From an uncultured bacterium (GTDB lineage Bacteria > Chloroflexota > UBA5177 > JANWHV01): 64,000 nucleotides of DNA. The notes beneath the pieces are model-generated. The model had not been told where the DNA came from and did no database searches. It worked only from the letters and a program-made list of their open reading frames with translations. The DNA is taken from NCBI GenBank assembly GCA_963729625.1, contig CAVSOU010000010.1:1-64000 (forward strand). Reading direction: 5' to 3'. The position numbers and the translations under genes are program-made. Numbering within the stretch: the stretch's first letter is position 1; each line of letters starts with the position of its first letter. Of the stretch, positions 36,420-53,598 are shown in pieces.

Positions 36420-36543
36420 TGACGCTCACTCCTCGCTAGGACTACCGCCCGCGCGGAATTCAGCATGCCCGACTCCTGGGCGCCTGCGATCCGAGGCCGC
36501 CCTGCGATTGGAGACCGAGCGGTATCAAACCACGGCACTATCG

Positions 36544-36975: not shown

Positions 36976-37065
36976 AACGGCTCGACTCCGCGTAACGCAT
37001 CAGCAGCGTCGCCTGCACAGCGATGAACCGCAGTGATCGAGGCATTGACGCCTGCCCGATGCGTC

Positions 37066-37094
37066 ACTGTAGCTGAGTCCGCGTGCGATGTCAA
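37066..37094 (-). promoter_or_regulatory. Sigma70-like promoter for the response regulator and hybrid kinase
   Basis: TTGACA-N17-TACAGT on the minus strand. Confidence 0.6.
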
Positions 37095-37104
37095 TACGCA
37101 TATG

Positions 37105-37147
37105 GCGAGCGGGATGATGGAGCCCTTTGCTCCATCATCCCGCTCGC
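37105..37147. terminator. Perfect 19-bp stem hairpin
   Basis: gcgagcgggatgatggagc-ccttt-gctccatcatcccgctcgc. Confidence 0.7.
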
Positions 37148-37192
37148 TCTAGATACCCGCCTTCGAATCAACCCGGGCAGAAGACCTCGCCG

Positions 37193-37489
37193 TCAGGAAC
37201 CGGCGCCCGCCTGAACGGCGGCCACGGAATCGGTCCGGCGCCGGCGCCTTCGACCTACATACCCCTTCGTGGCGTACGGTGTCGCATCGCCCCAAGAACG
37301 GATGAGGCTGGTGCTCCCACAACGACCGCAAGTCAGCACAGCACGCGACGGGAGAGCCAACGCTTCGGCCTGGCTGACCGGAACACTGCTCGTTTCAGTG
37401 TGGTGGACAAATCCCCGGCTGTTTGAACAACTCAAGCACTCGATCTGCCGCGCATACAGTCCCACGTGTATCTCCAATTGCTGGCACAT
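37193..37489 (-). CDS. Small protein with two CxxC motifs and an Arg-rich tail
   Basis: CLSC...CGRC, RRRRRR; followed by a strong hairpin. Confidence 0.55.
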   Translation of the reverse strand: MCQQLEIHVGLYARQIECLSCSNSRGFVHHTETSSVPVSQAEALALPSRAVLTCGRCGSTSLIRSWGDATPYATKGYVGRRRRRRTDSVAAVQAGAGS

Positions 37490-37788
37490 CAGTCTACGAA
37501 CTGGGGCGGCCAGCTACATGGCACCTCCTGGCGCCAGTCTTCTACTACTACGCGTATTTTCCTGCCGGGTGTGGCGAGGCGCACCACCTGTCCGGTTGAT
37601 CCTTAGGTTCAAAAGGGACTAGCCCGCGAACTCATCCTTGGTCGTACGTGAGGCCGATGTGCATTACCAGGCATACAGACATAGTGATTCCAGGTGGCGT
37701 GTTTGGCGCCTGTATCGTGCCGTGCGCGGAAATCCTGGGTTGAACCCCGCCTCGGCTGCTGGGACAGACAAGTCGAATCTGCAGGAGC

Positions 37789-38331
37789 ATGATGAGGAAG
37801 CGCCTGAAGCCGATCCTGCTGGCAGCATTTGTGTCGCGCGAGCTTGCCGATCGAGCAATTGAAGATCTGGTAATCGCTGGATTCGCCGGGCACTCGATCG
37901 GCCTGATCTCTCCGTTGCAGCTGCAGGGTAGAATGGTGGGTACGGGATGGACCCTTCCCGAGGGTCGTGAAACGTCGCCTATTGGCAGCATCCACTTCGA
38001 CATTGCTGAACTGGGTCCGACAGGCCCTGTCAACAAAGAGGGACCGGGAGCGGTTTCGCTTCCCGGCAACGTCATACAGATCCCGGACCTCGGTTCATTT
38101 TCCGCGTGCGGCTTCTTTTCAGGCGCAACCAGCGACAAACAGTGGCTTGCGAGCTGCCTGGCCGGCACAGACCTCACTGGCCCCGAGCGCGGCCAATTCG
38201 AGCTGCAGATCGAGGCCGGCAAGACATTAATTGGCGTTCTTCCCGAGGGCCGGGTGATTCTGGCAGGGGAGATACTCCGGCGATATGGTGGCGAGCTAAC
38301 GCACGAGCGGAGCCACAGCGCGCGCTGGTGA
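37789..38331 (+). CDS. Hypothetical protein (general-stress-protein-like N-terminus)
   Basis: AGGAG RBS; AAFVSRELADRAIEDLVIAGF...IGLI pattern; EILRRYGG. Confidence 0.6.
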   Translation: MMRKRLKPILLAAFVSRELADRAIEDLVIAGFAGHSIGLISPLQLQGRMVGTGWTLPEGRETSPIGSIHFDIAELGPTGPVNKEGPGAVSLPGNVIQIPDLGSFSACGFFSGATSDKQWLASCLAGTDLTGPERGQFELQIEAGKTLIGVLPEGRVILAGEILRRYGGELTHERSHSARW

Positions 38332-38493
38332 GGCAAAGCACCGATCGGCGCACACGGCCCTCACGCGTATACGGTAAGATCCGTTAAGCAGCGACGTGAG
38401 CCGTGGTTGTGCCAGGTTGGCGGGTCGTTGCGCTGCGTGCAGCGCAGAACGACACCGTATTCAGGATTTGTGCGTTGAGACCAGGAATCCAGA

Positions 38494-38994
38494 GTGGGTA
38501 ATCCCGCGATTCGACTGCGCGTCAGGCAGCGTGTGCTTGGAGCAGGCGTAGCCTACGTTGTCATGGCGGCGGACGTCGACGACGTCGTGTTCGAGGTGAG
38601 GAGCGTTCCCACCAATGTCGGGCATACGTTCGAGATGCTGGATCCCGACGGTACCATCGTTGCTTCGATTCACCAACACCTGCTCCCGGTGGAACCGAAC
38701 TACGTCATAAGGCGCGAGGGCATCGACGTTGGCGAAGTGCACCGCGACCTCGCGGCTGTGACATTCCCGCGCTTTGTTCTCGGCGGGATCCGCGACGGTC
38801 TCGTTCTGACCGCGGATCAATCCGACACGAAGTTCAACGTACTGCACAGTGGCAGCATTGTTGCGCGCGTCGAGAGAGTCCTGTCATTTGTTGGCTCGGC
38901 CTACTCAGTGGACTTTCTTCGTGACGTCGACGTCCCGACCATACTGTGTCTGCTGATCGCCGCCGACGACGCGATGAACCTGGACGCGAAATGA
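38494..38994 (+). CDS. LURP-one/scramblase (Tubby C-terminal-like) protein
   Basis: VRQRVLG start, beta-rich core, YSVDF...ILCLLIAAD C-terminal helix. Confidence 0.7.
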   Translation: MGNPAIRLRVRQRVLGAGVAYVVMAADVDDVVFEVRSVPTNVGHTFEMLDPDGTIVASIHQHLLPVEPNYVIRREGIDVGEVHRDLAAVTFPRFVLGGIRDGLVLTADQSDTKFNVLHSGSIVARVERVLSFVGSAYSVDFLRDVDVPTILCLLIAADDAMNLDAK

Positions 38995-39311
38995 CTCCGT
39001 TAGTGCCTTCATGAGCGTCTAGAGCCTAGCCATGACCGACTATCCCGGGCCATGGCGCTGGCAGGATGCCTTGGGACAAATCTCACGCAGCACCGTGGCC
39101 CGCCAAGTGTAGCCTTCAGTCCGGCCCTGCGGGTTCCACGCTTGCTTCAAAACAGGGCCGGAACGGGCTGGGCTCCCTAGTGGGTTCCCGGTGATGACGC
39201 CGGCAGCGCTGGTGGTCTGCGTCCCCGCGACGACATTGCCCTCAGCGTCCAGGGCGTTTGTATCGACGACGTCAAGTGGCGCCGGGCCGGACAACCGCAA
39301 GAGCGATCTGC

Positions 39312-40685
39312 TCATCTCGGCCTGGCCCGCACCGGCATGAAGGCTACCCGCGCCAGGAAGTCGCGAAGTAGGATCCGCCACACATACCACGCATGCCCAC
39401 CATTGATGAAGTCGGCCACCACGCCTATACGTGACCCTTGCAGCGTTGCAACCTCGTCGGCGGCAGCACGATGGATCGGATCCTGCCGGCCGCCGCCCAC
39501 AAGGATGCCGACCCGTCGAAGGGCAGCGACCTGCGCGGGGGTGAGCGTTGTGATGCCTGGAAATGGACTCATCACGGCGTAGTACCCGAAGGCACTCGTA
39601 TGGTTGACGAGCAGGGAGTTCACGAGGCCACCGCCGCACGATAGACCGCCAAAGGCGCGTTGCGACACCTGACTGGACACGTTGAAGTGGGCTTGCACAT
39701 AGGGGATCACATTGGCTACGAGGTCATGGTCGTACGCGCTGACCCATGGATCCGGGTGCGATAGGCAGTCACCTGCGAACCCGTTGAAGTTGGTCATAAC
39801 GACGACCATCGGTTGCACCAGACTGGCGCCGATCAGGTTATCCAAGATGTTGGCCGCGTCACCTTGGGTGGTCCAGTCCATCTCGTTTCCCCAGTAGCCG
39901 TGGCTGAGGTAGAGGGTCGGGTAGGGCGTGGCCCGTTGCGGGTTGTAGGCGGGCGGTGTGTAAATGGCCAGGGCGTGTGTCCCGCGCGGGGTGAGCGACT
40001 CAGGAGACGTGTAGGTGAAATACGCGAGCGAGCCGTGGACACGGCTCGGCGCCTGCCACGAGTAGTCGGCCGTGCGATAGGAGTGGTCGGAGGGGACGTA
40101 GACCTGGCTGTTGGGCTCGACCGAGCCCGCGGTGATCCCGTGGCTGGTGTTCCAGGGCGGGTTACTCGGGTCGGAGATCTCCGTGCAGCCCGTCTGATCG
40201 GCAGTGCGACAGTTGATAAAGAAGCCGTAGGTGAACACGCCGGACGGCAGCGGGGTCGTGTAGGACCATACGCCGGTGCCGGGATCCTTGGTCATGGCGA
40301 TGACCGGCCAGTTGGCGGCGACATCATTGGGGTGGGCAATCGGGAAGTCACCGGGCGCCCACTTCGCCGGCAGCAGCCCCTGGGAGCTGCTTAGCGTCGT
40401 CTGCGCCGGGCTGGAGAAATACCATTCGCCCTTGATCTGCACGCTGGTCGCTCTGGGGTCGCGGTAGTGGAAGGTTACCGCGTATCCGGTCGGAGGACTG
40501 CCCGTGTGCCGCACCGAGGGAGAGAGCCCGGGACTGATCGCAGTGTCTGACAAGAGGTTTTCGGCCCAAATGGACCTGGACGAGGCAGGGTGCGCGGCGG
40601 CCTGAGTCGCCGGCAATGCCGGAGCCAGCGAGATCATCGTCGCCAGGAGCACGAGCAGGGTGCACAATCTGCGGCACATGCGCAT
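39312..40685 (-). CDS. Secreted esterase (alpha/beta hydrolase, CE1/Fes-like) with N-terminal beta-sandwich
   Basis: Signal peptide; YTPPAY...YPTLYLSHG, GLSCGG nucleophile elbow, GGHAWYVWR. Confidence 0.88.
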   Translation of the reverse strand: MRMCRRLCTLLVLLATMISLAPALPATQAAAHPASSRSIWAENLLSDTAISPGLSPSVRHTGSPPTGYAVTFHYRDPRATSVQIKGEWYFSSPAQTTLSSSQGLLPAKWAPGDFPIAHPNDVAANWPVIAMTKDPGTGVWSYTTPLPSGVFTYGFFINCRTADQTGCTEISDPSNPPWNTSHGITAGSVEPNSQVYVPSDHSYRTADYSWQAPSRVHGSLAYFTYTSPESLTPRGTHALAIYTPPAYNPQRATPYPTLYLSHGYWGNEMDWTTQGDAANILDNLIGASLVQPMVVVMTNFNGFAGDCLSHPDPWVSAYDHDLVANVIPYVQAHFNVSSQVSQRAFGGLSCGGGLVNSLLVNHTSAFGYYAVMSPFPGITTLTPAQVAALRRVGILVGGGRQDPIHRAAADEVATLQGSRIGVVADFINGGHAWYVWRILLRDFLARVAFMPVRARPR

Positions 40686-40781
40686 AGGAGGAACTCCTTT
40701 CGATCAGGACGTCAGCATGGTACAGCCAAGCCGGAAGCGGGTCGGCGCGCACGTGCCACAGCATCGCGGTGCAACTATGCC

Positions 40782-41417
40782 TCAGTACCGCGCCATGACG
40801 AATAAGCCGGAGAAGGTAGGGGGCTGCATAGGCCCGCCGTTCGGCAATTCGTCTTTGTAGTACCCCGGCTGGGCTTCGATGGCCCAATAGTCTATGGGAT
40901 ACGGTCCTCCCGACCAATCGGGGCGGACCGGGTTATGCACCTCGCGCACGGTCTTGGCGCCGTAGAAGGTCATCCACTCGTCGGTAACGATAAGTTCCCC
41001 CGCACCTTGACTGATGTCGAACTTGCCATTGCCGTGGGTGGTGACGTGACACGTTCCATGCAGCAGCTTGCTGGTGAACAGCTGTGCGTTGCACTCAGGG
41101 CTGACCCCGCTGCCGTCGCTCATGAAGGTCTCCTCCCCCTGGAAGGTGGCGTGCTTGCCGGAGGCATCGCTCACGATATCCATGGTAATCGCCGTCGTAA
41201 CCTTTTGGGACGGCAGCGTAGTGTGATTCATGGCGTCCCTGACTCCCCACCGCCAGTCGCCCGTCGTGACGGAGGGGTCGTCCACCCATATGCCCTGGAC
41301 CACCCAGTGGCCGACCAGCGACGGGCTGCCGCTCGCCGCGGCCGCATGCCGCGGTGCGCCAGTGGCCAACACCGAGACCAGCATGAAACCAATTGCCAGA
41401 CAATGAAGTGCTCGCAC
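40782..41417 (-). CDS. Secreted hypothetical protein (beta-rich)
   Basis: AAAGGA RBS, Sec signal ending AAA, LVGHW motif, two Cys. Confidence 0.7.
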   Translation of the reverse strand: MRALHCLAIGFMLVSVLATGAPRHAAAASGSPSLVGHWVVQGIWVDDPSVTTGDWRWGVRDAMNHTTLPSQKVTTAITMDIVSDASGKHATFQGEETFMSDGSGVSPECNAQLFTSKLLHGTCHVTTHGNGKFDISQGAGELIVTDEWMTFYGAKTVREVHNPVRPDWSGGPYPIDYWAIEAQPGYYKDELPNGGPMQPPTFSGLFVMARY

Positions 41418-41533
41418 GATCCCCGATCCTTTCGCATCGTGGTTTCAACTTTCCGGGGCTCCAAACGACCTTTCTTGGTGCATACTTGCTTCGCCTGGCC
41501 GCAGCTGTCCTAACCCGCCCATCCGCGACCCGC

Positions 41534-41574
41534 CGGGGCACCCGCCCAAAGGGTGGGTCGTGGTGCCCCGGCTC
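41534..41574. terminator. Nested GC hairpin between the two secreted-protein genes
   Basis: gccggggcac...gtgccccggc with an alternative inner acccgccc-aaa-gggtgggt stem. Confidence 0.45.
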
Positions 41575-41644
41575 TGGTCCCAAGTCTATCAGTCAATGCC
41601 ACCGGGCACGCCTATGAGGCAGGCGCCGCTCCCGCCGCGCGCGT

Positions 41645-42184
41645 TCATTGGACATTGCCGCGATCTGGGAACAGTCTGGTTGCGTTCATGGTGACGATAG
41701 CCGGTACGCTGCTGCTCGTGCCATCGGGATTGTGCACCGTAAGCGAGGTCATGATCGCCAGAATCTCGCTCGCGTTATCGACGAACACCGTGGACCAGGT
41801 CGCTGAGCGAATCAATGTGCCCGATGGGTCGTAGAGGCTGACGGTCTGCGTGCCGGTGCAGTCGGGATTCACCGTGGCGGTGCCTTTGATCGTGTTCACG
41901 GCGATTTGGCCGCCTACGCTGGCGGTTTGCGTCCCTGAGATATTCCCGTGGGCGTCCCAGGTGGTTCTCCCGACGACTGCAAAGAGGGCCGGACCGGCCG
42001 GCCGGATGAGCGTTCCGGTTGCGCTGTGTCCCCACACCCCTGCCACGGCGGCGGTGGAGCACGTGCCAGGGCCCTGGCTCCGAGCCTGAGCGGGCGTTCG
42101 CGCTCCCGGAGGCGCCGCTACCGTCGCCACTCCCAGCAAGAGCGTGGCGGCGAGACAGAATATCCCCGCAGTGTTGCGCTTCAT
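41645..42184 (-). CDS. Secreted lipocalin-like beta-barrel hypothetical protein
   Basis: GGAGGA RBS, signal peptide, CSTAAVAGVW...GTATVNPDCTG (paired Cys). Confidence 0.75.
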   Translation of the reverse strand: MKRNTAGIFCLAATLLLGVATVAAPPGARTPAQARSQGPGTCSTAAVAGVWGHSATGTLIRPAGPALFAVVGRTTWDAHGNISGTQTASVGGQIAVNTIKGTATVNPDCTGTQTVSLYDPSGTLIRSATWSTVFVDNASEILAIMTSLTVHNPDGTSSSVPAIVTMNATRLFPDRGNVQ

Positions 42185-42552
42185 GGATGTCCTCCATTCC
42201 CATTACTGTGGTTTTGGGTCGATGCACTTCGGACCTGTACCAGAACCACACGGACGACGCTGACCCCTTTCTTGAACCGTGCGCTCGGCTCACCCTCCTT
42301 CCTTACGCTCCCGATAGCGTGCCGCTGATATTTCAACTGGCTCAACGGCACCGGACCGTGCGCGGCCTTGACCCTGCGTCGCGCGCACTAGGAGCACTCA
42401 ACATCGCCCAGCCACCACACGTTTCCTGCCGCCTCGCGCGGGAGTGGGACGAGTTCGGGTCCGCCCGCGGCGGTTCTTCCGGCGAGAAGGCGCGCTGCGC
42501 GGGATGCCTCCCCCTTCCGTACAGTCTGCGCTTGGCTGGACGTCGCGCACCA

Positions 42553-42615
42553 GGCACAGCAGCGGCACAATGGCGGCACGATAGAGGCACAATGCCGGTT
42601 CCGGCGTGCTATGAT
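42553..42615 (+). promoter_or_regulatory. Four phased GGCAC direct repeats (11-bp period) upstream of an extended -10
   Basis: GGCAC at 42553, 42564, 42575 and 42586; TGcTATGAT at 42607-42615. Confidence 0.7.
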
Positions 42616-42665
42616 GGTGCCGGGAGCGGGAGGAAGGCGGCGCCGCAGAGCGCAGCTAGGGTGCG

Positions 42666-45600
42666 ATGGCTGGTACAGCCCCGCAAGTGTTTGGCAGGCT
42701 GCTCCGAGAGTACCGCCTGGCCGCCAGCCTGACGCAGGAGGAGCTGGCGCAGCGGGCGGGCTTGAGTGCGCGCGGGCTCAGGTACCTGGAGCAGGGCACC
42801 CGCCGCGCCCATCCGGACACGGTGCGCCGGGTCGCGGATGCCCTTGGCCTCACGACCGCGGACCACGATCGTTTGCTCGCGGCCGCGCGTGCTTCTCCGG
42901 AGGGTGCTGCAAACACCGCAGTGCCGTGGCTCGGTCTCGTGGGGGAGGGCCAATCGCTGCTCACCGGGCGGCTGGAGGAACAGCTGTCGCCAGGCGAGAG
43001 AACGTCCCTCGCCGTCCTCTCGCATGCGGTGGAGGACGGCGACTTTGTGGCGCGGCTGCAGGCTGACCTCGCCGCGAACGGTGTCGCAGGCTGGTCGGAG
43101 CACTCCCAGCCGCAGTCCGGGGCGGGCCGGCCGGAAGCGATGCGGACGGCCATGCGCGCCTGCCGGGCTGTGCTGCTGGTGGCGTCGCCCGCTACCCGCT
43201 CATCGCGCTGGGTCCTCAGGGAGCTGAGCCTGGCCGAGATGTACGGCCGCCCCATCGTGCCAATCTGGTCGGCGGGGGAGGAGTGGCAGGACTGTGTGCC
43301 AGTGGGACTGGCCAGCGTGCCCTACGTGGATGCCCGCGGGGCGCGCTATGCCGAGGCAATCGCCGCCATCGTCGCCGCCATGGGCGCGCGCTCTCCCATG
43401 GAGGACTTCGTGCGCGCACCTGCCGCGCCGGTGGTACCACGCAACCCGTACAAAGGCCTGCGCGCGTTTGGCGAGGAGGACGCGGGCGACTTCTTCGGGC
43501 GGACCGCCTTCGTGCAGACGCTGGTGGAGGCGGTTGCGTCCATCCTGGCTACGGCGCAGGCCGCGCCGGCCCGCCTGCTGGCGGTAGTGGGGCCGAGCGG
43601 CTCGGGCAAGTCCAGCCTGGTGCGCGCCGGGCTTGTGCCATGCCTGAAGGCGGGCGCCTTGCCCGGCAGCGAGAGCTGGGTCTACCTCGATCCGGTCCTG
43701 CCCGGCGCCCGGCCCCTGGAGGCCCTGGCCGTGGCCCTGGCAGGCAAGGGTGAGCGCAGCATCCATGCCCTGCGGGAGGACCTCGGCGCCGAGGACGCCC
43801 GTGGCCTGCACCTCTGGGCGCGGCAACTGGCGCCTCATCCCGAGCAGCGGGTGGTGCTGGTGATCGACCAGCTCGAGGAGCTGTTCACGCTCACCACGGA
43901 TGAGGAGGAACGCCGGCAGTGCATCGACCTCCTGCTCACCGCGGTCGGTGAGCCGCGCGGCCCCCTGCTGGCCATCCTCACCCTGCGTGCCGACTTCTAT
44001 GACCGGCCACTGGCCTATCCCGGTCTCGCGGCCCTGCTGGAGACGCACGGCAAGGTCGTGGTGCCGATGAGCGTGGCCGAGCTGCGGGAGGCCGTCGAGC
44101 GGCCCGCCGCCCTGCCCGACGTGCAGCTCGACTTCGAGCCCGGCCTGGTGGGCGACCTGCTCTACGAGGTGGCAGGCCAGGCGGGGGCGCTGCCGCTGCT
44201 GGAGTTCACCCTCGAGCAGCTCGTCGCGCGCCGCCAGGGAACGACCCTGACCGTGGCCGCCTACGAGGAGCTGGGCGGCGTGCGCGGCGCGATGAGCCGG
44301 CAGGCCGAGGCGACCTACACCGCGCTGCCCACCGACGATCATCGACATCTGGCGCGGGCGCTTTTCCTGCGGCTGATCGACCCGGGCGCCACCGAGCAGG
44401 ACACGACCCGCCGGCGAGCAGCAGTGAGCGAGCTGATCCTGTCCGACGCCGGGCAGACTGCGCTGATGCGCGAGGTCGGCCGACGCCTTCGTGCTGGCGC
44501 GGCTGCTGACCGCGAGCGAGCAGGGCGGGGTGAGCCGGCTGGAGGTCAGTCACGAGGCGCTGATTCGCGAGTGGCGGCGGCTGGCCGGCTGGCTGCACGA
44601 GGCGCGCGAGGACGTCCGCCTGCAGCAGACGATCAGCGCCGACGCCGCGATCTGGGCCCGGCGTGGCCAGCCCAGCGACCATCTCTATCGCGGCACCGTC
44701 CTGGCGGAGGCACGGGCCTGGGCAGCGCGGAACACGCCGAGCGCCGAGGAGCAGGCTTTCCTGGAGGCGGCTGGGCATGCAGAGCACGAGCAGGCGGCGA
44801 GCGGAGCAAGTGCGGCAGGCACGGGAACTGGCGCTGGCGCGGCAGGCGGCCCGGGCCAACCGGCGTGCAGCTACGCGGCTCCGCCTGCTGGCCGGCGTGC
44901 TGGCCATGTTCCTGGTGGTGTCCGCGGGCCTGAGTGCCTTTGCCGTCAACAACGCCTCGGTGGCCTCCGATGCAAGGGCGCGCGCGGTCGCGGCCCGCGA
45001 TGCGGCGCTAGCCGAGGTCGCGCGCGATGTCGGCCTGCGGGCCGGCACGTTGCTGGGCAGCCATTTGCAGGTCGCGCTTCTCCTGAGCGTAGAGTCCGAT
45101 CGGCTGAGCGGCTCACCGCGGAGCCGTGCCGCGTTGATCCGGGCGGTCACCTATAGTCCTCGGCTGCTCGCATTTCTCACCACGCAGGCCAGCGCTGTAC
45201 TCAGCGTGGCCTTCAGCCCAAAGGGCACAATCCTGGCTGCGGGCAGTGACGACGGCACGGTCCGGTTATGGGACATACCGCGCCGGCAGCCCATCGATCC
45301 GCCCCTCGCCGGCCATACCGGAGCCGTGAATACCCTGACATTCAGTCCAGACGGCGCGATCCTCGCCTCGGCGAGCGACGATGGCACGGTGCGGCTGTGG
45401 GATGTGGCCCGCCACCGGCTCCTCGCGCCACCCCTGGCGGGGCAGGGAGCATTTCTCAAGAGCCTGGCCATCAGCCCGAACGGCCGGATCCTCGCCTTCG
45501 GCGGCAGTGCCGGCACGATCCAGCTCTGGGATGTGGCAGGCGGCCGGCCGCTCGGCCCACCGCTGAGCGGACCGGTCGGGTCCGTCTTTGACCTGGCCTT

Positions 45601-47077
45601 CACGCCGGACGGCACGGTCCTGGCCTCGTGCAGCGGAAGCAGCACGATCTCGCTGTGGGATGTGGGCCGCCACCAGCCTCTCACGCCCTTGACCGATGGG
45701 CCCACCTTCGCGGCGCTGAGCCTGGCCTTCAGCCCCGACGGCAAGACGCTCGCCAGCGGCGGCGATGGGGGCGCAATACTTCTGTGGGATATGGCGAGTC
45801 GTCGGGTTTCAGGCCGACCACTCACCGGGCACACCGGACCGGTGTTTGGCGTGGCCTTCAGTCCCGACGGCAAGGTACTCGGCTCCGCCGGGCAGGACAG
45901 CACCATCCGGCTCTGGGACGTGGTGGACCGGCAACCGCTCGGCTCGCCACTGGTGGGACACGCCGGTTCTGTCAATGGCCTGGCCTTCAGCCCCGACGGC
46001 AGGACGCTGGCGTCCGGTGGCGATGACGGCACGATTGGCCTCTGGAACGCGGCGAGCGCGGAATCGCCTACCAAGGTGCGGGTGCTCGCGGGGCATACCG
46101 GCGCGGTCGAGAGCGTGGCGTTCAGCCCCGACGGCGCAGTCCTCGCGTCGGGCAGCGACGACGAGACCGTTCGCCTATGGCGTGTGGCAAGTGGTCAGCC
46201 TGCGGGCTCGCCGCTCAGAGGGCACACGGGCCCCGTGCTGAGCGTGGCATTCAGCCCGGACGGGACGACCCTCGCCTCGGCCAGCGCCGACACGACCGTC
46301 CGCATGTGGGATGTGGCAACAGGTCGGGCGGCAGGCCCGGCCCTCACCGTGCAGGCAGTCACGTGCGTTGCCTACAGCCCCGATGGCACGATGCTGGCTA
46401 CTGGCGGTCGTGACGGCATCGTCCGGCTGTGGGATGTGGCGAACCGGCGGCAGCGCGGTCCGCCGCTGACCGGGCACACGGCTCCGGTGTCGAGCGTGGC
46501 CTTCAGTCCCGACGGCCAGACGTTGGCGTCCGGCAGCACCGACGAGACCATTCGCCTGTGGAACGTGGGGAGCGGACAGCTGCTCGGCCGGCCCCTCACG
46601 GGTCGCACCGGCCCGGTGAACGGCGTGGCGTTCAGCCCGGATGGCAGGATCCTCGCCGCCGGCAGCGTGGAGGGCACGGCCCTGCTGTGGGATGTGGCGC
46701 ACCGGCAACCGGCCGGAACGGCGCTCGCCGGGCACACCGGCCCGGTGCTCAGCGTGGCCTTCAGTCCCGACGGCCAGACGCTGGCCGCCGGCAGCGCCGA
46801 CAAGACCATCCTCCTGTGGGACGTGGCAAGCGGGCAGCTGCTTGGTCCGGCCTTCGCCAGGCACACCGACGCGATCGTGAGCCTCGCGTTCAGTCCCAAC
46901 GGCTGGCTGTTGGCCTCCGGGAGCAACGACACGACCGTCCGGCTGTGGTCAATTGGGCCCCAGCAGCCCTTGGCTCGGCGTGCCTGTGCGATAGCCAATC
47001 GCAACCTGTCGCGCCAGGAATGGCAGCAGTACCTCGGCGACCTGCCGTACCACAGGACGTGCCCGGTCGTGGCTTGA
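42666..47077 (+). CDS. XRE HTH - TIR - nSTAND1-type NTPase - TM - 14x WD40 protein (~1469 aa reconstructed), split by +1 indels at ~44478 and ~44800
   Basis: FGRLLREYR..LTQEELA HTH; DFVARLQADL..SSRWVLRE TIR; NPYKGLRAF..FFGR, GPSGSGKSS, VIDQLEELFT, LRADF, GALPLLEF, VSHEALIREW; hydrophobic helix; GH..AFSPDG..LWD repeats. Confidence 0.88.
45175..46950 (+). repeat. 14 coding WD40 repeats (~129 bp each)
   Basis: Recurrent ttcagccccgacggc / ctgtgggatgtgg nucleotide motifs. Confidence 0.9.
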
Positions 47078-47146
47078 AGCCGTTTGCAGTCATCGACTTC
47101 GCTGTCGGAAACCGGTTCTCCGTGACGTATCGCTGAAGTGCGTTTC

Positions 47147-47240
47147 TTACTCGTTGAGCACATGCCAGACATCGAGCTGCGGTGCCAGCGCCGGATACAT
47201 GCTCGCTCGGGCAGCTTTCATGGCGCTGCCCCACCACACG
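47147..47240 (-). pseudogene. Possible DDE transposase remnant
   Basis: GSAMKAARASMYPALAPQLDVWHVL resembles the segment ending D/C-x-W-H in IS256/ISL3-like transposases; lies at the island edge. Confidence 0.3.
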
Positions 47241-47384
47241 CCTCGGCGAGACGCTCCCACGACACTCCGTGGCAACGCGCGCGGCCGCACGGTCCTCGGC
47301 GCCCCCTCGGTCTGCGCCGCGTGCTGCTCCCTGGATTTCCACGCGGCCCATGGCAGGTCCATCCCTGCCCGCTCAAACGCCGGC

Positions 47385-47458
47385 TCGAACGACACAGACA
47401 GGAGGGGTGTGCCATAACACACCACCGATCCGTCCCTCAAGCAGCCTGTGTCGTTCGA
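47385..47458. other. Long nested stem-loop between convergent genes
   Basis: 13-bp perfect stem tcgaacgacacag/ctgtgtcgttcga enclosing ggtgtg-ccataa-cacacc. Confidence 0.6.
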
Positions 47459-47505
47459 TTTGCCTCTGGTAGATCCCGATCACGCTCGAAGGGGATAGTC
47501 ACCAC

Positions 47506-49914
47506 CTAACACTCGCTGTAGCCGCAGCCGTGGCACTTCTTGCAGCCCTCCTCGAGGACAAACGCTGCGCTGCTCCCGCACTGCGGACACAAGTTGCCCA
47601 GCACTCTGGCAATAGGGAGCCTGCCCGCGGCCGGGGCGCCCTGGGCGCCGCCGTGGCCATTCCCGTTTTCCGTGGCATGCCTCGGTAACGGCCGTGACAC
47701 CGTGCTCAGTCCTTGCTGGATGTGCCAGCTCAGCGCCTGCGCGACGGCATCGGGCAGCGAGAGCACGCGTTCGGCGCCAAATCCAATGGATCGGCTGCCG
47801 CCAATGCCACGCATCTGCCCGGCAATGAGCTGCAGCCGCTCCTCTGTGGGAATTGGAGACGGCAAACGGAGATTCAGCGATATGAGCCTGCCCAGGGCTT
47901 CAGCTAGAGCCGCGATGTCGGAGCCCGCTCGACCCACGCTGATGAACACCTCAAGAGGTCCTGCATCATCCGAGTTGACGGTAATGTTGGCCGTGCCTTC
48001 CGGAGCTCTCAGTTGTCGCGTGTAGCCCCAGACAATGGGGGGACGCGGCTTCACCGTCATCGGCATAGACGGGATGTGCGCCTCGTAGTCGACGCCAGCC
48101 CCGGGAACCTGCATCGGCATCGCCGGCGCGGTCGCATCTCGGGTGCCGGCGTTGAGCACCTGGCCCGTTGCCAGACAACCGTCCCTGAATACCGTGATGC
48201 CCTTGCAGCCCTCCTGGTAGGCCAGCAGATAGGCGCGGGCAACATCGTCGACCGACGCCTCGGTGGGAAGATTCACCGTCTTGCTGATGCTGTTGTCCAC
48301 TCCACGTTGGAACGCAGCCTGCATCTTGATGTGCCATTCGGGCAGAATCTCGTGGGCCGTGACAAATACCCGTTGCCAGCGCTCGGGAACCACGTCGAGG
48401 TCGGCCACTGTTCCGTGGTCGCTGACCTTCTCCATAAGCTGGTCCGAGTAGAATTCCTGCTCGCGGGCTATGCGCTCGAAGACGGCGTTGGTCATGATGA
48501 GCTTGCGCTCAGTCACCTTTCCGCGGTCGACAATGTGCATGAAAGCAAGTGCAAACGCCGGCTCAATTCCGCTGGAACAATCGGCGATGATACTTATCGT
48601 GCCTGTAGGGGCAACCGTAGTGAGCGTCGCGTTTCGCAGGGCCGGCCCGTTCTTATAGATTGACCGGGAGAAATTGGGGAATGACCCACGCGTCCCTGCC
48701 AGCTCTTGCGACTCCTTGTGTGCTGCGCGATTGATGAACGACATAACCTTCTCGCCCAGAGCGAGGGCTTCGTTGGAGTCGTAGGGAATGGCCAGAAGGA
48801 ACAGGAGATCGGCCCAACCCATCACGCCGAGACCGATGCGCCGATTCGCTCGAACAGTATCGTCGATCAGCTGCAACGGCAGGGGGTTAATCTCGATGAC
48901 GTCGTCGAGGAATCGCGTCGTCACGCGAGTGACACGTTCGAGCTCATTCCAGTCAACATCGTACGTAGCACCATCGAGTTTGACGACACACTCGGCCAAG
49001 TTGATGCTGCCGAGGTTGCATGCGTCATACCCGCCGAGCCATTGCTCGCCGCAAGGGTTGGTCGCCTCAATCTGCTCCAGCTCGGGTATGGGGTTGCTGC
49101 CACTGTTGTTAGCGCGATCGATGAACAGCAGGCCCGGATCCCCGGTAGCCCACGCTGCATCACAAATTCGATCAAACACCATCTTTGCGTTGAGCGTGCC
49201 CGTGACTTTGCCAGTGTGCGGGTCGCGAAGCTCGTAGTCGCCTTCACGTTCGAGCGCATGCATGAACGCTTCTGTCGCGGCAACTGAGATGTTGAAGTTG
49301 GTGATATCCCGGAGGCCCGTTTCGGGATCGGGTCGCTTGCAGTCGATGAACTTGAGGATGTCCGGATGATCGACGCGAAGAACGCCCATATTGGCGCCGC
49401 GCCGCGTGCCGCCCTGTTTGACTGCTTCGGTAGCGGCATTGAAGACGCGAAGGAAGCTCACTGGGCCGCTCGCGACACCTCGCGTCGTCGCGACCTCGCT
49501 GCCTTCCGAGCGCAGGCGGGACAATCCGAAGCCTGTGCCGCCGCCGCTCTTGTGAATGATGGCCGCATATTTGATGGCGTCAAAGATCTCGGGGAGGCTA
49601 TCGCCTACCGGCAGGACAAAGCACGCCGACAACTGCTGTCCGTTGTTCTTGCCCGCATTCATCAGGGTCGGTGAGTTAGGCATGAACTGCCGGTCGACCA
49701 TAACCTGATAGAAGCGCTCGGCAATATCGCTCACTTCCGCTTCGTCCGCGCCCCACGTGCGCTCAGCATCCGCAACCGCCGATGCGACCCGCCAGCACAT
49801 CTGATCCTCGTCCTCGAGCGTGACGCCGTCTTTGCGCCAGAGGTAGCGTTCCTTCAGCACACGTGCCGCACTCTCCGACCACCGCCCCTTCTTGCGCTCC
49901 ACGATCATCGGCAT
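47506..49914 (-). CDS. nrdJ: Class II (B12-dependent) ribonucleotide reductase with C-terminal TSCPD/zinc ribbon
   Basis: PNSPTLMNAG, QLSACFVL, RRGANMG, TNPCGEQ, CNLGS, APTGTIS, EEGCKKCHGCGYSEC. Confidence 0.96.
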   Translation of the reverse strand: MPMIVERKKGRWSESAARVLKERYLWRKDGVTLEDEDQMCWRVASAVADAERTWGADEAEVSDIAERFYQVMVDRQFMPNSPTLMNAGKNNGQQLSACFVLPVGDSLPEIFDAIKYAAIIHKSGGGTGFGLSRLRSEGSEVATTRGVASGPVSFLRVFNAATEAVKQGGTRRGANMGVLRVDHPDILKFIDCKRPDPETGLRDITNFNISVAATEAFMHALEREGDYELRDPHTGKVTGTLNAKMVFDRICDAAWATGDPGLLFIDRANNSGSNPIPELEQIEATNPCGEQWLGGYDACNLGSINLAECVVKLDGATYDVDWNELERVTRVTTRFLDDVIEINPLPLQLIDDTVRANRRIGLGVMGWADLLFLLAIPYDSNEALALGEKVMSFINRAAHKESQELAGTRGSFPNFSRSIYKNGPALRNATLTTVAPTGTISIIADCSSGIEPAFALAFMHIVDRGKVTERKLIMTNAVFERIAREQEFYSDQLMEKVSDHGTVADLDVVPERWQRVFVTAHEILPEWHIKMQAAFQRGVDNSISKTVNLPTEASVDDVARAYLLAYQEGCKGITVFRDGCLATGQVLNAGTRDATAPAMPMQVPGAGVDYEAHIPSMPMTVKPRPPIVWGYTRQLRAPEGTANITVNSDDAGPLEVFISVGRAGSDIAALAEALGRLISLNLRLPSPIPTEERLQLIAGQMRGIGGSRSIGFGAERVLSLPDAVAQALSWHIQQGLSTVSRPLPRHATENGNGHGGAQGAPAAGRLPIARVLGNLCPQCGSSAAFVLEEGCKKCHGCGYSEC

Positions 49915-50007
49915 CTCATCCTTCCTAAGAGAGTTTGCAGTATTGCTTGGGGTTCACGCCTGGCAACACGTGGCGTCGCCGAGCGAATGCACCTCAGGAC
50001 TCCATGG

Positions 50008-50466
50008 CTAGTCGTGGCGCACGCGCTCGATTGCCTCCTGCAGCTGGCGGAGCGATGTGAAGCTGAGGTAGACCGAAGCGAAACGAAGATACGCGATGTC
50101 GTCAAGCTCGCGGAGCCTGCTCATCACGAGCCCCCCGATCGTCTGGCTGCTCACTTCTGACACACCTTGTCTGAACAATTCAGACTCGACATCGTCGACG
50201 ATATTGTCCACAGCGTCGGCCGGAATTGGCAGACGATGGCACGCTGTCGAGACACCGCGGCGCAACTTATCGCGATTGTAATCCTCGCGCTGGCCATTCT
50301 TTTTCACTACCGAGAGCCCTACGTGTTCGAGCCGCTCATAGGTCGTGTACCGCTGCCTGCAGGCGGTACATTCCCGGCGTCGACGAACGCTTCCACCGCT
50401 CTTGGTCTCAGTTTCGCGCGAGTCTATCACGCGAGAGTCGTTATGGCCGCAGTATGGGCACTTCAC
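50008..50466 (-). CDS. nrdR: Transcriptional repressor NrdR
   Basis: MKCPYC..VIDSR..RRRRECTAC..YTTYE, ATP cone, AYLRFASVY. Confidence 0.98.
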   Translation of the reverse strand: MKCPYCGHNDSRVIDSRETETKSGGSVRRRRECTACRQRYTTYERLEHVGLSVVKKNGQREDYNRDKLRRGVSTACHRLPIPADAVDNIVDDVESELFRQGVSEVSSQTIGGLVMSRLRELDDIAYLRFASVYLSFTSLRQLQEAIERVRHD

Positions 50467-50495
50467 GATGCATCACTTTCCGGCGCCTCTGCACG

Positions 50496-50511
50496 CCCCA
50501 ACATGTAGTGT
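50496..50511. promoter_or_regulatory. NrdR box
   Basis: ccccaacatgtagtgt against consensus acaCwAtATaTwGtgt; 30 bp upstream of nrdR. Confidence 0.7.
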
Positions 50512-50789
50512 TGGAACCTCAGACCTCCCCAGAGCATTGTATACGGTAGCACGTCAATGCTTGGGGATCAATGGGCATGCCGCCCAGTCTGAGGCGAGTT
50601 TCTCGGCTCGACACGAAGGCCTCTTCGCCAGTCCGTCAGGTGGCGCTCGGCGGCAGTCTTGGAAGGGCTGTCAAAGGTGTTACTCTACAAGTGATGAGCG
50701 ACGACGGCACGTTTCAGCCATCTGCCGCGGGCGACAACCGCCTGGTTATAGGCTGGCACGGCGGCGGTTTGGTCGCTGCCCTGAAGGTG

Positions 50790-51818
50790 ATGCGCGAACG
50801 TACTCGTTTGCCCGTCGCGGGCGCAGCCGCCCTTGTGGCGCTGGCTATTGCAATCGTAGCGGTGGCGTGGCACAGTCACACAACCCACACGGAAACAAGT
50901 CCAAGCCTGGCTGCAACGGTGAACAGCCTGCCGGTGACCCTGGCGGCCTTTCATCGCCAGTTGGATTTTGCCCGCGCGGCGTATGACGGGCCTGGATCAC
51001 CTGGTCCGTCGCCCACGGGACGCACAGTTGAGCAGCTGATCGTCGATCGCGCCATGCAGCAGGCCATCGGCGAAGTGCTCATCGACGACACGGCCCGGCG
51101 CGATCGAGTTTCCGTTTCGGATGCAGATGTTGCGGCCGAGGTCCGCCGTATGACGAGCCAGGCCGGCGGACCAGCCAGCTTGCAGGCTGAGATGAAGTCG
51201 GTACATATGTCCGCCGCGGAACTTGATTCGATCGCACGGCACACGGAGTTGCGCGACCGTCTCGCAGAAATGCTGCACGATCGTGCCTGGCTGGATGAGA
51301 TGTTTGCCAATGCGGAGATCCGGTACTTCGTCGACGATTTGTCCGAGTTCGGCGCCGCGCCCACCGTCGCATTGGGCCAGCGAGCGGCGCCGTTCGTCGC
51401 GGAGGACCTGCGTGGTCGCGCGGTCTCACTGGCTGATCTGCACGGCAAGGCAGTTGTGCTCAACTTCTGGACAACGTGGTCGGGTTACAGCCGATCGGAG
51501 CTTCCGTTACTGCTGCGATTCGCGCACGCGCATCCAGAATTCTATGTCGTCGCCTTGAACCATTCGGAAGACATCAACACGGTTCGAGTGTTTATTCACT
51601 CGCAACACCTCGATGGCCTGACCGTGTGGCTCGACAAAGGCGGGCAGGCGTACGCCAGTTATCAGATGAGCGGCATTCCGGCCACCTTCTTCATCGACAT
51701 GCACGGTATACTACGCAGCTACAACTATGGCGCCCTCGCGGATATGGCAACGCTCAGCGACCAGGCACGGCACGCGTTGCGCGGCCTGGACAATACATAC
51801 CTCAATCAGAGCCAGTAG
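50790..51818 (+). CDS. Membrane-anchored SurA-N-like domain fused to a TlpA/ResA-like thioredoxin fold lacking CxxC
   Basis: TM; ATVN...V..AAFHRQL, VSVSDADVAAEV (SurA/PrsA-like); VLNFWTTWSGYSRSELP; cis-Pro IPATFFID. Confidence 0.8.
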   Translation: MRERTRLPVAGAAALVALAIAIVAVAWHSHTTHTETSPSLAATVNSLPVTLAAFHRQLDFARAAYDGPGSPGPSPTGRTVEQLIVDRAMQQAIGEVLIDDTARRDRVSVSDADVAAEVRRMTSQAGGPASLQAEMKSVHMSAAELDSIARHTELRDRLAEMLHDRAWLDEMFANAEIRYFVDDLSEFGAAPTVALGQRAAPFVAEDLRGRAVSLADLHGKAVVLNFWTTWSGYSRSELPLLLRFAHAHPEFYVVALNHSEDINTVRVFIHSQHLDGLTVWLDKGGQAYASYQMSGIPATFFIDMHGILRSYNYGALADMATLSDQARHALRGLDNTYLNQSQ

Positions 51819-51823
51819 AGCTG

Positions 51824-52375
51824 ATGGCAACGGTATCGGCCTCGGTAAGAACACTCGTACGCAGGTTGATTGGCTGGTCGCCGATGGTTGTGGCCGCTCT
51901 GGCGGTCCTCATCGCCGCGACTCTTGTCCTGAAGCCGGCGAGTCATGCCACCGGCCTGGTGGGAAGAGCAGCGCCAGACTTCACGCTTCGAGACACGGCG
52001 GGTGCGTCCGTTCGCCTCAGTAGATTATCCGGACATCCAATACTGTTGAATTTTTGGGGAGTCACCTGCGAGCCATGCCGGCTCGAGGTGCCAGTGCTGC
52101 AGCTGGCTTATGAACGGCATCGCGGAACAGGACTACTCGTGATCGGCGTGGACGCCCAGCTCGACGACGCGCAAGCCGTCACATCATTTGCATCCGAACA
52201 CGGAGCCACGTACCCCATGCTGCTCAACCCCAGCCAGGCGCTGCTGCAGTCATACGACCTCTCAGCCCTACCGCGAAGCTTTCTGATAGATCGTTCCGGT
52301 GTGATCCGCGCGGACGAGCAAGCCCCGTTCGAGGATCCCGGCACGCTCGAGGTAGCGTTACGAGCGATTCTTTGA
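51824..52375 (+). CDS. TlpA/ResA-family disulfide reductase
   Basis: APDFTL, LNFWGVTCEPCRLEVP, LPRSFLID. Confidence 0.92.
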   Translation: MATVSASVRTLVRRLIGWSPMVVAALAVLIAATLVLKPASHATGLVGRAAPDFTLRDTAGASVRLSRLSGHPILLNFWGVTCEPCRLEVPVLQLAYERHRGTGLLVIGVDAQLDDAQAVTSFASEHGATYPMLLNPSQALLQSYDLSALPRSFLIDRSGVIRADEQAPFEDPGTLEVALRAIL

Positions 52376-52380
52376 CGACG

Positions 52381-53598
52381 CTACCGTTCACGGCGGAAGA
52401 ATCGCCGGATGGTCTCGACGCGCTCCAACGCCTGTCCGTGCAGCTTGCGGCGCATCGCCGGATCGAGCCATCCGAGCAACGGCCCTCCGAAACCACGATC
52501 GGTTCCTTCCGCAGCGCTGGACGGAGCGTGAAACGGCAACTCTGCCGTGGACGACTCGGCGCTTGGCGGGACGGGCGTCGAAACGGGCTGCGCTGAGGCG
52601 GCCGCCGCCATCGTCGCTGGAATGGGCGCCTCGGTCTCTGTCGCGGGCTGGGCATGCGCTCGAGTGGCTTCTGCTCTAGGCCCGTGGGCCACGGCCACTA
52701 TCAGCTCGCCGGAGTCCGGAGCAGGCTGGGTCTCAGCAGAGGCCCTGTCATTGGCGGCGGGAGCTCCCGTGGCGGCGATCGTGAATTCTGGACGACCGGC
52801 GCCATGAGGGCCCGGCGACACTGGCGCGACGTGTGATTGTTCGGCACAGCCCTCCGGCTTCGCCGGTCCCGTCTCGCTCAACTGTGCATCAGCAGGGCTA
52901 CCAGTCAGGTCGGACCCTGGCGCCACGACGCCGGAGGTCCGGGAGCCGGTCGCACCGGCAGCCTCAACGGGAGCGCCTGCAGCCGCTGCCGCGCTGCCCC
53001 TCTCGGCGTCATTCGCCGGTTGCATTCCGGGTTCCGGCGCCGCTGGATGTGCGGAATCTTGTCGTTCCGGCTCAGTAGCGGTAACGTTTCCATTCATGGG
53101 CACATGAGACGCGGATCGGGTGTGAGAGACGACGGCATCGCCCGAGGAAGGCGCCGGAGTCTCCGCAGACTCGACAAGCATGCGCCTCGACGTGCCCTCG
53201 ATTGTCGCTCCTTCAAGCAGTTTCAGGCGGTTGTCCCGATCGCTTACCTGCGCCTGCAAATAGCCGACCTGGCCGGATAGTCGAACACGATCTTCCTGCA
53301 GCCTCGCAATTTGCTCGTCCCTGTCTCGCAACATTTCGAGCAGCATGAGGAAGTTGGCATGGGCTGTCGACGATTCGCGTCCATCAAGCTCGGTCGCCGG
53401 CGGCTTTTCAATTCCCGCGACCTGAACAGTCGCGACCGGCTGACCTAGCGAGACCAGGTCCGCGCGAGACACCAGCCACCGCTTGCCGCGCCGGATAGCG
53501 GGCAGCTTGCCCGAGTGAGCGAGGGATCGCAGTTCCCGCTTGGATCGGCCGCTCTGCGAGGATGCCTGGCTCAGCGTAAGATGGTCGTCGATTGACAT
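52381..53598 (-). CDS. Excisionase/MerR-like HTH + coiled coil + low-complexity tail protein
   Basis: LTLSQAS...GKLPAIRRGKRWLV; heptad-rich middle; Ala/Pro-rich tail. Confidence 0.75.
   Translation of the reverse strand: MSIDDHLTLSQASSQSGRSKRELRSLAHSGKLPAIRRGKRWLVSRADLVSLGQPVATVQVAGIEKPPATELDGRESSTAHANFLMLLEMLRDRDEQIARLQEDRVRLSGQVGYLQAQVSDRDNRLKLLEGATIEGTSRRMLVESAETPAPSSGDAVVSHTRSASHVPMNGNVTATEPERQDSAHPAAPEPGMQPANDAERGSAAAAAGAPVEAAGATGSRTSGVVAPGSDLTGSPADAQLSETGPAKPEGCAEQSHVAPVSPGPHGAGRPEFTIAATGAPAANDRASAETQPAPDSGELIVAVAHGPRAEATRAHAQPATETEAPIPATMAAAASAQPVSTPVPPSAESSTAELPFHAPSSAAEGTDRGFGGPLLGWLDPAMRRKLHGQALERVETIRRFFRRER

Follow-up and report, generated by a model that had tools for sequence, protein, structure and literature searches.

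A probable recent pseudogene of the TIR-nSTAND1-WD40 type in an uncultured Chloroflexota bacterium and the membrane receptor that its intact form might encode

Closest described systems and layout of the gene

The STAND clade nSTAND1 has been named as part of counter-invader systems, together with TIR and other effectors (Kaur, Iyer, Burroughs, and Aravind 2021, eLife, PMC8195603), and helix-turn-helix (HTH) domains are reported among effector modules (PMC7159879). A classification into 589 STAND clades also notes WD40 and Apaf-1-like sensors (Nature 2026, PMC13581612). Moreover, nSTAND1 proteins with CLec/FGE sensors are targets of diversity-generating retroelements, some of these targets being predicted as periplasmic (PMC10907252), receptor-like ParA immune proteins with a single, type-II transmembrane (TM) segment carry external sensors (bioRxiv 10.64898/2026.10.19.760177), and bacterial NACHT proteins with TM regions are predicted to read membrane or periplasmic signals (bioRxiv 10.1101/2022.07.19.500537). 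In this work, we analyzed a gene located at positions 42666-47077 of the window, that is, the whole 64,000-nucleotide (nt) stretch of contig CAVSOU010000010.1 (assembly GCA_963729625.1) from an uncultured bacterium of the Chloroflexota; the gene and its features lie on the plus strand. We suggest that it represents a recently inactivated copy, the intact form of which would probably be a membrane-bound, NLR-like receptor with an autoregulating HTH and a TIR effector. To our knowledge, all the experimentally studied prokaryotic STAND/NLR-like immune proteins sense their ligands intracellularly; in this respect a large and conserved clade seems to be different, with a sensor placed beyond a TM helix and an outward charge bias in the relatives listed (the best 120 of 6428). 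If this were confirmed, bacteria would also read the outside with STAND switches, as Toll-like receptors do with TIR domains.

In its corrected reading the gene has the organization HTH-TIR-nSTAND1-TM-WD40 and runs through three frames. The frame-0 segment (42666-44477, 604 codons), delimited by Pfam profiles, motifs, and AlphaFold2 (AF2), embeds an XRE HTH, a linker, a TIR, and a portion of the nSTAND1 NTPase. The HTH (42690-42875; Pfam, AF2, and fold match) scores 48.7 bits with HTH_31 at amino acids (aa) 9-70 (cut-off 27) and 42.2 bits with HTH_3 (cut-off 23), and the TIR (43017-43367; again Pfam, AF2, and fold match) 54.2 bits with TIR_2 at aa 118-234 (cut-off 28). The NTPase (43446-44474; Pfam), with a Walker A motif GPSGSGKS (aa 309-316; 43590-43613) and a Walker B motif VIDQLEE (aa 399-405; 43860-43880), reaches 312.1 bits with nSTAND1 (PF20703) at aa 261-603 (cut-off 27.1), only positions 1-315 of the 379 of the profile being covered in frame 0. 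The remaining positions (314-378) are found with 55.7 bits at 44470-44676 in the third frame, the translation of which ('...ARLLTASEQGG...EVSHEALIREW...') is typical of the nSTAND1 end; the frame-1 segment (44479-44799, 107 codons; profile and tblastn) comprises the C-terminal part of nSTAND1 and the helical region after it. The frame-2 segment (44801-47074, stop codon 47075-47077) contains an Arg-rich stretch, a hydrophobic helix of 21 residues (LLAGVLAMFLVVSAGLSAFAV; 44885-44947), a helical neck, 14 WD40 repeats of about 43 aa each, alignable in register (approximately 45146-46951; Pfam and AF2), and a two-helix C-terminal cap with a Cys pair (46985 and 47060). Without correction, two long overlapping open reading frames (ORFs) appear, 42666-44933 (755 aa) and 44663-47077 (804 aa), which lie in different frames; the second matches WD40 in 14 stretches (482 bits). 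A first-pass annotation, made from the letters alone, had listed the same four domains, both Walker motifs, the hydrophobic helix, the 14 repeats, and the Cys pair; all of them are recovered here, the domains above the Pfam cut-offs. It had also presented 42666..47077 as one span, which stands for the domains and falls for the reading frame, although its mention of a 'repaired gene' hinted at the problem without stating it.

The TIR-nSTAND1 conflict proteins (PMC8195603) share with this gene the NTPase clade PF20703, an N-terminal TIR effector, C-terminal repeats, and the occurrence in filamentous or multicellular lineages; unlike them, as described, the family of the window gene adds a TM segment after nSTAND1, an XRE HTH before the TIR, and iterons, even though the supplements may list such cases. 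Apaf-1 and the Apaf-1-like bacterial STANDs (PMC13581612) also combine a STAND NTPase with a tandem WD40 propeller sensor. Apaf-1, however, is soluble, with an N-terminal CARD and 7 + 8 blades, whereas here a TM helix separates the NTPase from the propellers, HTH and TIR precede the NTPase, and the repeats are 14. The ParA 'PCTM' proteins, the TIR-ParA receptor subtype, and the TM bNACHTs resemble the gene in having a cytoplasmic NTPase (in some cases with a TIR), one TM segment, and a variable extracytoplasmic sensor, but as described they are built on ParA or NACHT rather than on nSTAND1, on PASTA, SPOR, cadherin, and other sensors rather than on WD40, and mention no fused HTH. We found no paper on HTH-TIR-nSTAND1-TM-WD40 or its promoter repeats; supplementary tables may list the architecture. 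We consider the window gene as a decayed member of a lineage-expanded Chloroflexota family and a variant of the known TIR-STAND conflict receptors.

Frameshifts, probable decay, and turnover of the copies

In tblastn, an intact paralog of 1463 aa from the source genome (G000:C11, P0004) aligns to the window gene as three collinear pieces, its residues 1-602 matching 42666-44477 in frame 0 (74% identity), residues 603-706 matching 44479-44790 in frame 1 (84%), and residues 731-1462 matching 44885-47071 in frame 2 (62%). In DNA alignments, both this paralog and the intact, 1472-aa copy of a congener (G001:C12) have a 1-nt gap at 44478 and at 44800. The window gene is therefore read in three frames because of two 1-nt insertions: an extra G at 44478 (GTC-G-GCC; tblastn and DNA alignment), which leads from frame 0 to frame 1, and an extra A at 44800 (GCGGCG-A-GCGGAG; DNA alignment), outside a homopolymer, which leads from frame 1 to frame 2. 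As regards nSTAND1 membership, a single uninterrupted coding frame is lacking in this copy. With the two insertions, the protein would be truncated behind the NTPase core, and the window copy therefore most likely makes no working receptor; it is most likely a recent pseudogene.

One might argue that the gene is intact in the organism, both extra bases being consensus errors of the assembly, and that the locus encodes a working receptor of 1470 aa. Indeed, both lesions are single-base insertions, the corrected reading is free of premature stops, and the ratio of nonsynonymous to synonymous divergence (dN/dS) is below one in all segments, the one between the shifts included. Moreover, the source genome is a draft (21 contigs, 87% complete, 5% contamination), and the reads of one peat-metagenome run (0.06 of words) left 44433-44469 uncovered and provided barely any cover over 44766-44802, which leaves some room for an assembly error because the insertion sites lack read cover; the same run yielded short contigs of relatives, uninformative on both insertions, and no RNA run was listed. 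Nevertheless, at two per 4.4 kb, about 12 errors would be expected in the approximately 26.5 kb of the six intact paralog frames (1355-1537 aa, most of them equally G+C-rich), which show zero frameshifts. The extra A at 44800 lies outside any homopolymer, some lesions of other paralogs (an insertion sequence (IS) and a TAG) cannot be read errors, and two long ORFs nearby (1109 and 802 aa) are unbroken. Given the intact paralogs, the position of the extra A, and the lesions of the sister copies, we favor real mutations and regard an intact gene as rather unlikely. Programmed frameshifting and phase variation were also considered and rejected, neither insertion lying in a slippery or repeat tract.

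The dN/dS values, calculated per segment with the NG86 method between the window gene and the intact congener copy (dS 0.33-0.60), are 0.17 for the HTH, 0.77 for the linker, 0.58 for the TIR, 0.30 for the NTPase, 0.22 between the frameshifts, 0.29 for the TM/neck, and 0.44 for the WD40 part. Since the ratio is below one in seven of seven segments, purifying selection must have acted over most of the divergence, even on the stretch now out of frame; judging from this comparison, the decay of the window copy is recent. It is worth mentioning that the TIR diverges faster from the G001 copy (66% aa identity) than the HTH (88%) or the NTPase (79%). Many long ORFs on other frames or strands also overlap the gene, such as 42019-42732 (+), 42609-43103 (-), and 43200-44348 (-); the first of them (237 aa) has no Pfam match, and all look like by-products of the high G+C content.

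The source genome contains 22 nSTAND1 matches, 14 of which are above the cut-off, corresponding to about 10 loci, six intact and four broken (the window copy included). The three other broken paralogs comprise one interrupted by an IS insertion of 1.54 kb, one with frameshifts and a TAG, and one with frameshifts. The first (C11:517537-519078; 70-77% identical to P0004) is split by the insertion, which carries on the opposite strand an ORF for an integrase-like (rve/DDE) transposase of 337 aa, and the paralog at C11:750181-754567 shows the TAG and two frame changes. A separate fragment with HTH and TIR only is found at C11:644666-645235. The 604-aa N-terminal query has a match (E <= 1e-30) in seven of the 31 related genomes, the source genome (G000) counted in, and three of the four congeners have a match to this part; one congener of 8 Mb has at least 13 matches, many of them in open frames of 1474-1671 aa and none more than 75% identical. 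The window copy is mainly evidence of birth-and-death turnover in the receptor repertoire.

Predicted topology, TIR domain, and promoter repeats

The hydropathy analysis was carried out on the window protein and on the best 120 of the 6428 relatives, taking the best 19-residue Kyte-Doolittle (KD) window in the region 360-480 residues after Walker A. The KD value at this position is at least 1.9 in 102 of the 121 proteins and 1.62-1.89 in 18 more, in which TM-like Gly/Thr-rich segments follow 'KRYTRRT'; the sole clear exception is P0039 (0.96), with GAF domains instead. The helix of the window protein has 21 uncharged residues and a KD of 2.31, with five Arg in the preceding 15 aa. In the 102 members, the 15 residues before the helix contain on average 3.84 Lys plus Arg vs. 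1.49 in the 15 after it, the N side being richer in 92, equal in nine, and poorer in one; 96 of the 102 also have a higher net charge on the N-terminal side. According to the positive-inside rule, HTH, TIR, and NTPase would be cytoplasmic and the part after the helix outside, so that an N-in/C-out, single-pass, type-II topology is likely, the helix itself being predicted. The first-pass annotation had placed the sensor outside the membrane, and the charge bias of the whole family points in the same direction.

In the AF2 model of 44801-47074 (27-row alignment; predicted local distance difference test, pLDDT, 88), one continuous helix (residues 2-84) spans the Arg-rich stretch, the TM segment, and the neck, followed by two short helices, 14 blades, and the two-helix cap. 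The top Foldseek match of this model is 2ymu, a 'highly repetitive propeller structure' (43% identity over 609 columns, E 6.7e-58), which also has 14 WD40 repeats in two propellers, although the structure covers just the propeller part of its protein. Tandem-propeller proteins come next, including Apaf-1 (chains 3shf and 3sfz, E ~1e-38). Profile, fold, and best match are all in agreement with the 14 repeats counted at first pass. In 27 sequences, C729 is invariant and C754 is at least 90% conserved, and this pair is what an extracellular disulphide would look like. We also considered whether the array might be of the 'highly internally conserved', recombining type, an idea that was rejected, since internal repeat identity is only 67-75% at the DNA level.

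It is conceivable that the hydrophobic helix does not cross the membrane, being a peripheral anchor or buried, and that the propellers are cytoplasmic, as those of Apaf-1. The WD40 units have the common FSPDG...LWD sequence, a type that forms cytoplasmic propellers in other proteins, and the best fold matches (2ymu, Apaf-1, and Aip1) are cytoplasmic as well; moreover, a signal peptide is lacking, and any export would have to begin only after about 740 residues. This arrangement appears nonetheless improbable, given the uncharged and strongly hydrophobic segment within one long modelled helix, its conserved position in 120 of 121 proteins whatever comes after it (the sole exception having GAF), the strong positive-inside bias, and the conserved Cys pair, found only in the part following the TM. 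In the kinase- and trypsin-class relatives P0052, P0056, P0060, P0062, P0087, P0103, P0118, and P0122, the hydrophobic segment is preceded by K-R-Y-T-R-R-T-V/L-L-V-G-L-A-G, a stretch that resembles a twin-arginine export motif in an internal position.

Turning to the inner side, the AF2 model of aa 1-260 (43-row alignment, pLDDT 83; linker 81-102 disordered) contains a TIR that matches SARM1 (7anw, E 3e-5), RUN1, and RPS4, and that superposes on the TIR-APAZ chains of SPARTA with a root-mean-square deviation of 2.0-2.3 A over about 133 columns (21% identity). Both a TIR profile match and a structure match, the lack of which would have spoken against the first-pass annotation, were thus found, the latter to NADase TIRs, and the Glu that it had considered as retained is E186 (43221-43223), at the W-x3-E-L position of the motif SSRWVLREL. 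The domain retains every invariant and near-invariant position of the family and, by the Glu criterion alone, looks catalytically competent. The Glu column is occupied by E in 22 of the 27 HTH-class relatives.

Upstream of the gene, at 42553-42596 (+), we found four direct repeats with an 11-bp period (GGCACnnnnnn x4; GGCACAGCAGC GGCACAATGGC GGCACGATAGA GGCACAATGCC), a candidate operator, and, nine bases after the array and about 50 nt before the ATG, an extended -10-like box (GTGCTATGATGG; 42606-42617, +). Nowhere else in the genome (5.4 Mb) does any 5-mer occur four times with a spacing of 11 nt, and the triple GGCAC-N6 pattern occurs only at this promoter (chance expectation 0.08 triples and 0.00016 quadruples). 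The congener copy (L012) keeps both the array, with three GGCAC and one GGAAC, and the box. The box, searched as TGnTAnnnT, is present in 10 of 14 upstream regions with the HTH pattern, L026 and L029 having been dropped for want of an HTH match. As a general motif, GTGCTATG[AC]T was rejected, its 24 sites in the genome being close to chance; only its recurrence at paralog promoters (five of the 24 lie upstream of HTH-TIR paralogs) is meaningful. Over 42200-42700 and 47000-47560, a simple sigma-70 scan gave no -35/-10 pair and a terminator scan gave no site.

Different arrays precede the paralogs; these repeats were called by eye, save for the genome-wide counts. They are GGGGTnnnnnn x3 at C11:374602 and CCATGGAGA x2 at C17 (both genome-unique), GGCAAAG / GGGAAAAG at C11c, CGGCAAG x3 at 12 nt at L028, and ACAGTTG x2 at L027. 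The recognition helix reads SARGLRYLEQ in the window and congener copies, STRALKYLEQ in C11c, STSAVKKLEQ in C11:372, SLRGVLYLER in C17 and its G001 counterpart, and GVRSISDLER in L028, helices and arrays differing in step between paralogs. The two TIR-nSTAND1 paralogs lacking the HTH have neither box nor array upstream. A further paralog on C14, with HTH and nSTAND1 and no TIR (start 191039, -), carries a perfect 13-bp inverted repeat (AAACCTGCCACAC ... GTGTGGCAGGTTT, 21-nt spacer) ahead of a GTGCTACGCT box. Such an inverted repeat is a classical operator of XRE regulators and differs from the direct repeats found ahead of the copies with a TIR.

The HTH is modelled with a pLDDT of 90-98 over aa 11-70, its fold matches C.BclI (2b5a) and C.AhdI (1y7y), and the PADLOC models capH and Control_protein match it. 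The C proteins of restriction-modification systems and CapH of CBASS are small XRE-type regulators of the promoter of their own defence operon; they are free-standing dimers acting on inverted repeats, whereas the HTH of the window gene is fused to a receptor and faces direct 11-bp repeats. Since the array is genome-unique and lies at the gene's own promoter, and since the HTH resembles C proteins and CapH, the domain is more likely a cis-acting autoregulator than a second effector. MalT-type activators likewise combine a STAND NTPase with an HTH, and the repeated short boxes in their target promoters suit an oligomer. By analogy, the iteron sites would suit an oligomer too, the 11-bp period placing them on one helix face, as in the MalT boxes; MalT, however, is soluble, with a C-terminal LuxR-type HTH, a real regulon, and no TIR, whereas the window gene has an N-terminal XRE HTH and an array at its own promoter only.

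The first-pass annotation had regarded the HTH as a second output. According to this idea, activation would make the HTH switch a set of other genes and, at the same time, make the TIR cleave NAD+. The two domains are indeed there and apparently undamaged, HTHs are among the effector modules of related conflict systems (Kaur et al., PMC7159879, PMC8195603), and in relatives the position before the TIR is filled by classical effectors (trypsin, kinase, and CHAT). However, the sole candidate-operator array in the genome lies at the gene's own promoter, the same being true for the arrays of two paralogs. Moreover, conservation peaks in the HTH (88% aa identity, dN/dS 0.17), the upstream repeats being conserved as well, as for a cis-linked regulator, and the domain resembles autoregulators. 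We deem a true dual output hardly likely and the autoregulator the better reading.

Function, family, and genomic context

On these bases, the intact form would comprise XRE HTH, TIR, nSTAND1, TM helix, helical neck, two seven-bladed WD40 propellers, and, at the C-terminus, a Cys-capped hairpin. As the positive-inside rule suggests, the propellers would lie outside the cytoplasmic membrane and bind a ligand there; by analogy with Apaf-1 and the Avs-type STANDs, ligand binding would be transmitted by the TM/neck helix and relieve autoinhibition, and nSTAND1, in the cytoplasm, would bind NTP and oligomerize. The TIRs, with Glu at the catalytic position, might then assemble and cleave NAD+, leading to growth arrest, death, or a signal, while the HTH, as iterons and fold likeness suggest, would bind the four 11-bp iterons and set the gene's own expression, with no separate regulon.

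A non-immune role can also be imagined, in developmental or environmental signalling, the protein being a membrane-tethered MalT/AfsR-like STAND regulator that responds to an extracellular cue and uses the TIR as an oligomerization scaffold. The HTH and the direct-repeat arrays do recall the MalT boxes bound by oligomerized MalT, the Glu column is poorly conserved in the wider family, defence-island context and PADLOC matches of the NTPase are missing, and the host lineage is Chloroflexota. Still, the arrays occur only at the genes' own promoters, which speaks against a target regulon; the approximately 10 nSTAND1 loci, four of them decayed, and the at least 13 matches of the congener, none above 75% identity, amount to a birth-and-death turnover such as conflict genes typically show; related architectures have trypsin, CHAT, or kinase domains instead; and the TIRs of the HTH class mostly keep the Glu. 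We therefore consider signalling improbable. The conflict reading is based on the domain repertoire, the expansion and decay of paralogs, the extent to which congeners have diverged, and published work on the clade.

Several observations weigh against a membrane-bound, autoregulated TIR receptor whose window copy has decayed. Besides the draft state of the genome, the read gaps at the insertions, and the cytoplasmic propellers mentioned above, membrane insertion of the helix is a prediction. XRE HTHs usually bind inverted repeats and the array is direct; the co-variation of iterons and recognition helices involves about six classes, each inherited with the adjacent gene, and is not independent evidence. 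As for the TIR, the PDB alignments (phmmer) that place E186 on the Glu of W-x3-E-L are weak (7uxr, E 0.069; 3h16, E 0.46), and, of the 121 TIRs, 59 have E in the Glu column, 40 have H, and nine have Q, so that NADase activity is not a family constant. Lastly, the neighbourhood includes no defence island, its genes are housekeeping ones, and no feature links the locus specifically to phage defence; in PADLOC, no model fits the NTPase and no Avs or NACHT model matched, the matches being at domain level only (HTH_VI, capH, Control_protein, and ThsB TIR-like, plus HEAT-ARM_XIII on the WD40 part).

The family is more important than the window copy, given its external-looking sensor and its per-copy promoter repeats. 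The search of the 604-aa part among longer proteins gave 6428 matches at E <= 1e-20 out of 8000 candidates scored, and the best 120 were kept; the named ones include Chloroflexota, Ktedonobacteraceae, and Aggregatilineales metagenome-assembled genomes (MAGs). In this sample, which is query-biased as the query contains a TIR, a TIR stands directly before nSTAND1 in 120 of 120 (local phmmer). The window HTH matches 24 of them (local phmmer), and Pfam HTH labels of P0077, P0081, and P0101 raise the number to 27. Several bear the JGI name 'WD40 repeat protein/transcriptional regulator with XRE-family HTH domain'. In ten diverse members scanned with Pfam, the module ahead of TIR-nSTAND1 is absent or is a Zn ribbon, an XRE HTH, Trypsin_2, Pkinase, CHAT, or a second TIR; what follows is Beta_helix/Chlam_PMP repeats, no recognisable domain, or, in one case, GAF. 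WD40 repeats follow in the window protein (Pfam) and in many other listed relatives (precomputed Pfam labels). P0082 and P0118 were scanned with NCBIfam for wall-binding domains after the TM, with nothing usable; the precomputed labels PF01471 and PF06832 were not used. Since the N-terminal module varies among relatives, the combination of a TIR with another N-terminal domain is a recurrent trait of the clade and no peculiarity of the locus. The architecture is common, annotated in databases, and experimentally untouched; the 'uncharacterised dual-output design' of the first-pass annotation is not supported as a special trait of this locus, where the gene is broken and the layout recurs in 27 of these 120.

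It is tempting to speculate, albeit tentatively, that the family represents a sort of 'surface NLR', in which an external WD40 sensor recognises foreign surfaces, phage parts, or non-kin cells, coupled through a single TM helix to a cytoplasmic STAND-TIR death or alarm module, each paralog having its private HTH/iteron circuit. If true, the cell would be equipped with a set of external immune receptors, each under its own autoregulation and each functionally a hybrid, in one polypeptide, of a Toll-like (outside sensing, TIR inside) and a NOD-like (STAND switch) receptor. The private iteron arrays would make it possible to test directly whether immune receptors are autoregulated paralog by paralog.

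The gene does not appear to be fixed in its place. The window region 40784-47087 aligns to G001:C12 with 78-79% nt identity, forming a block of about 6.3 kb with the gene, its promoter, and two divergent ORFs, while the flanks (the response-regulator/kinase side and the ribonucleotide reductase side) map to G001:C8 at 68-80%. This contig is collinear with the flanks (window 36001-56000 compared) but holds a different filling of 12.7 kb. Since the block is on one contig and the flanks are on another, the block has changed place between the two genomes. On G001:C12 it adjoins a further paralog fragment. A recent horizontal transfer of the block is not supported, its 78% nt identity equalling that of the ribonucleotide reductase flank (80%). 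The related-locus search of genome contigs returned one locus in an uncultured Chloroflexia MAG, with 58% identity and useless for synteny. The HTH-TIR-nSTAND1-WD40 genes (window 42500-47100; C9, C17, and C11) have a G+C content of 0.70-0.72 (0.83-0.87 at third codon positions) and their flanks 0.62-0.65; the two TIR paralogs without HTH and the C14 copy without TIR are nearer to the genome mean (0.62-0.66). These G+C islands might possibly derive from a foreign origin, from biased gene conversion among repeats, or from amino-acid composition.

The other genes in the surroundings encode an esterase (39312-40685), a ribonucleotide reductase (47506-49914), NrdR (50008-50466), and peroxiredoxin-like proteins. 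The two divergent ORFs that travel with the STAND gene, 40782-41417 (-) and 41645-42184 (-), have signal-peptide-like N-termini, no Pfam or PADLOC match, and 72-73% aa identity between the source genome and G001; they may be partners of the receptor or ligand-related. A weak relative of the 40782-41417 ORF lies about 3.5 kb from the C9 paralog.

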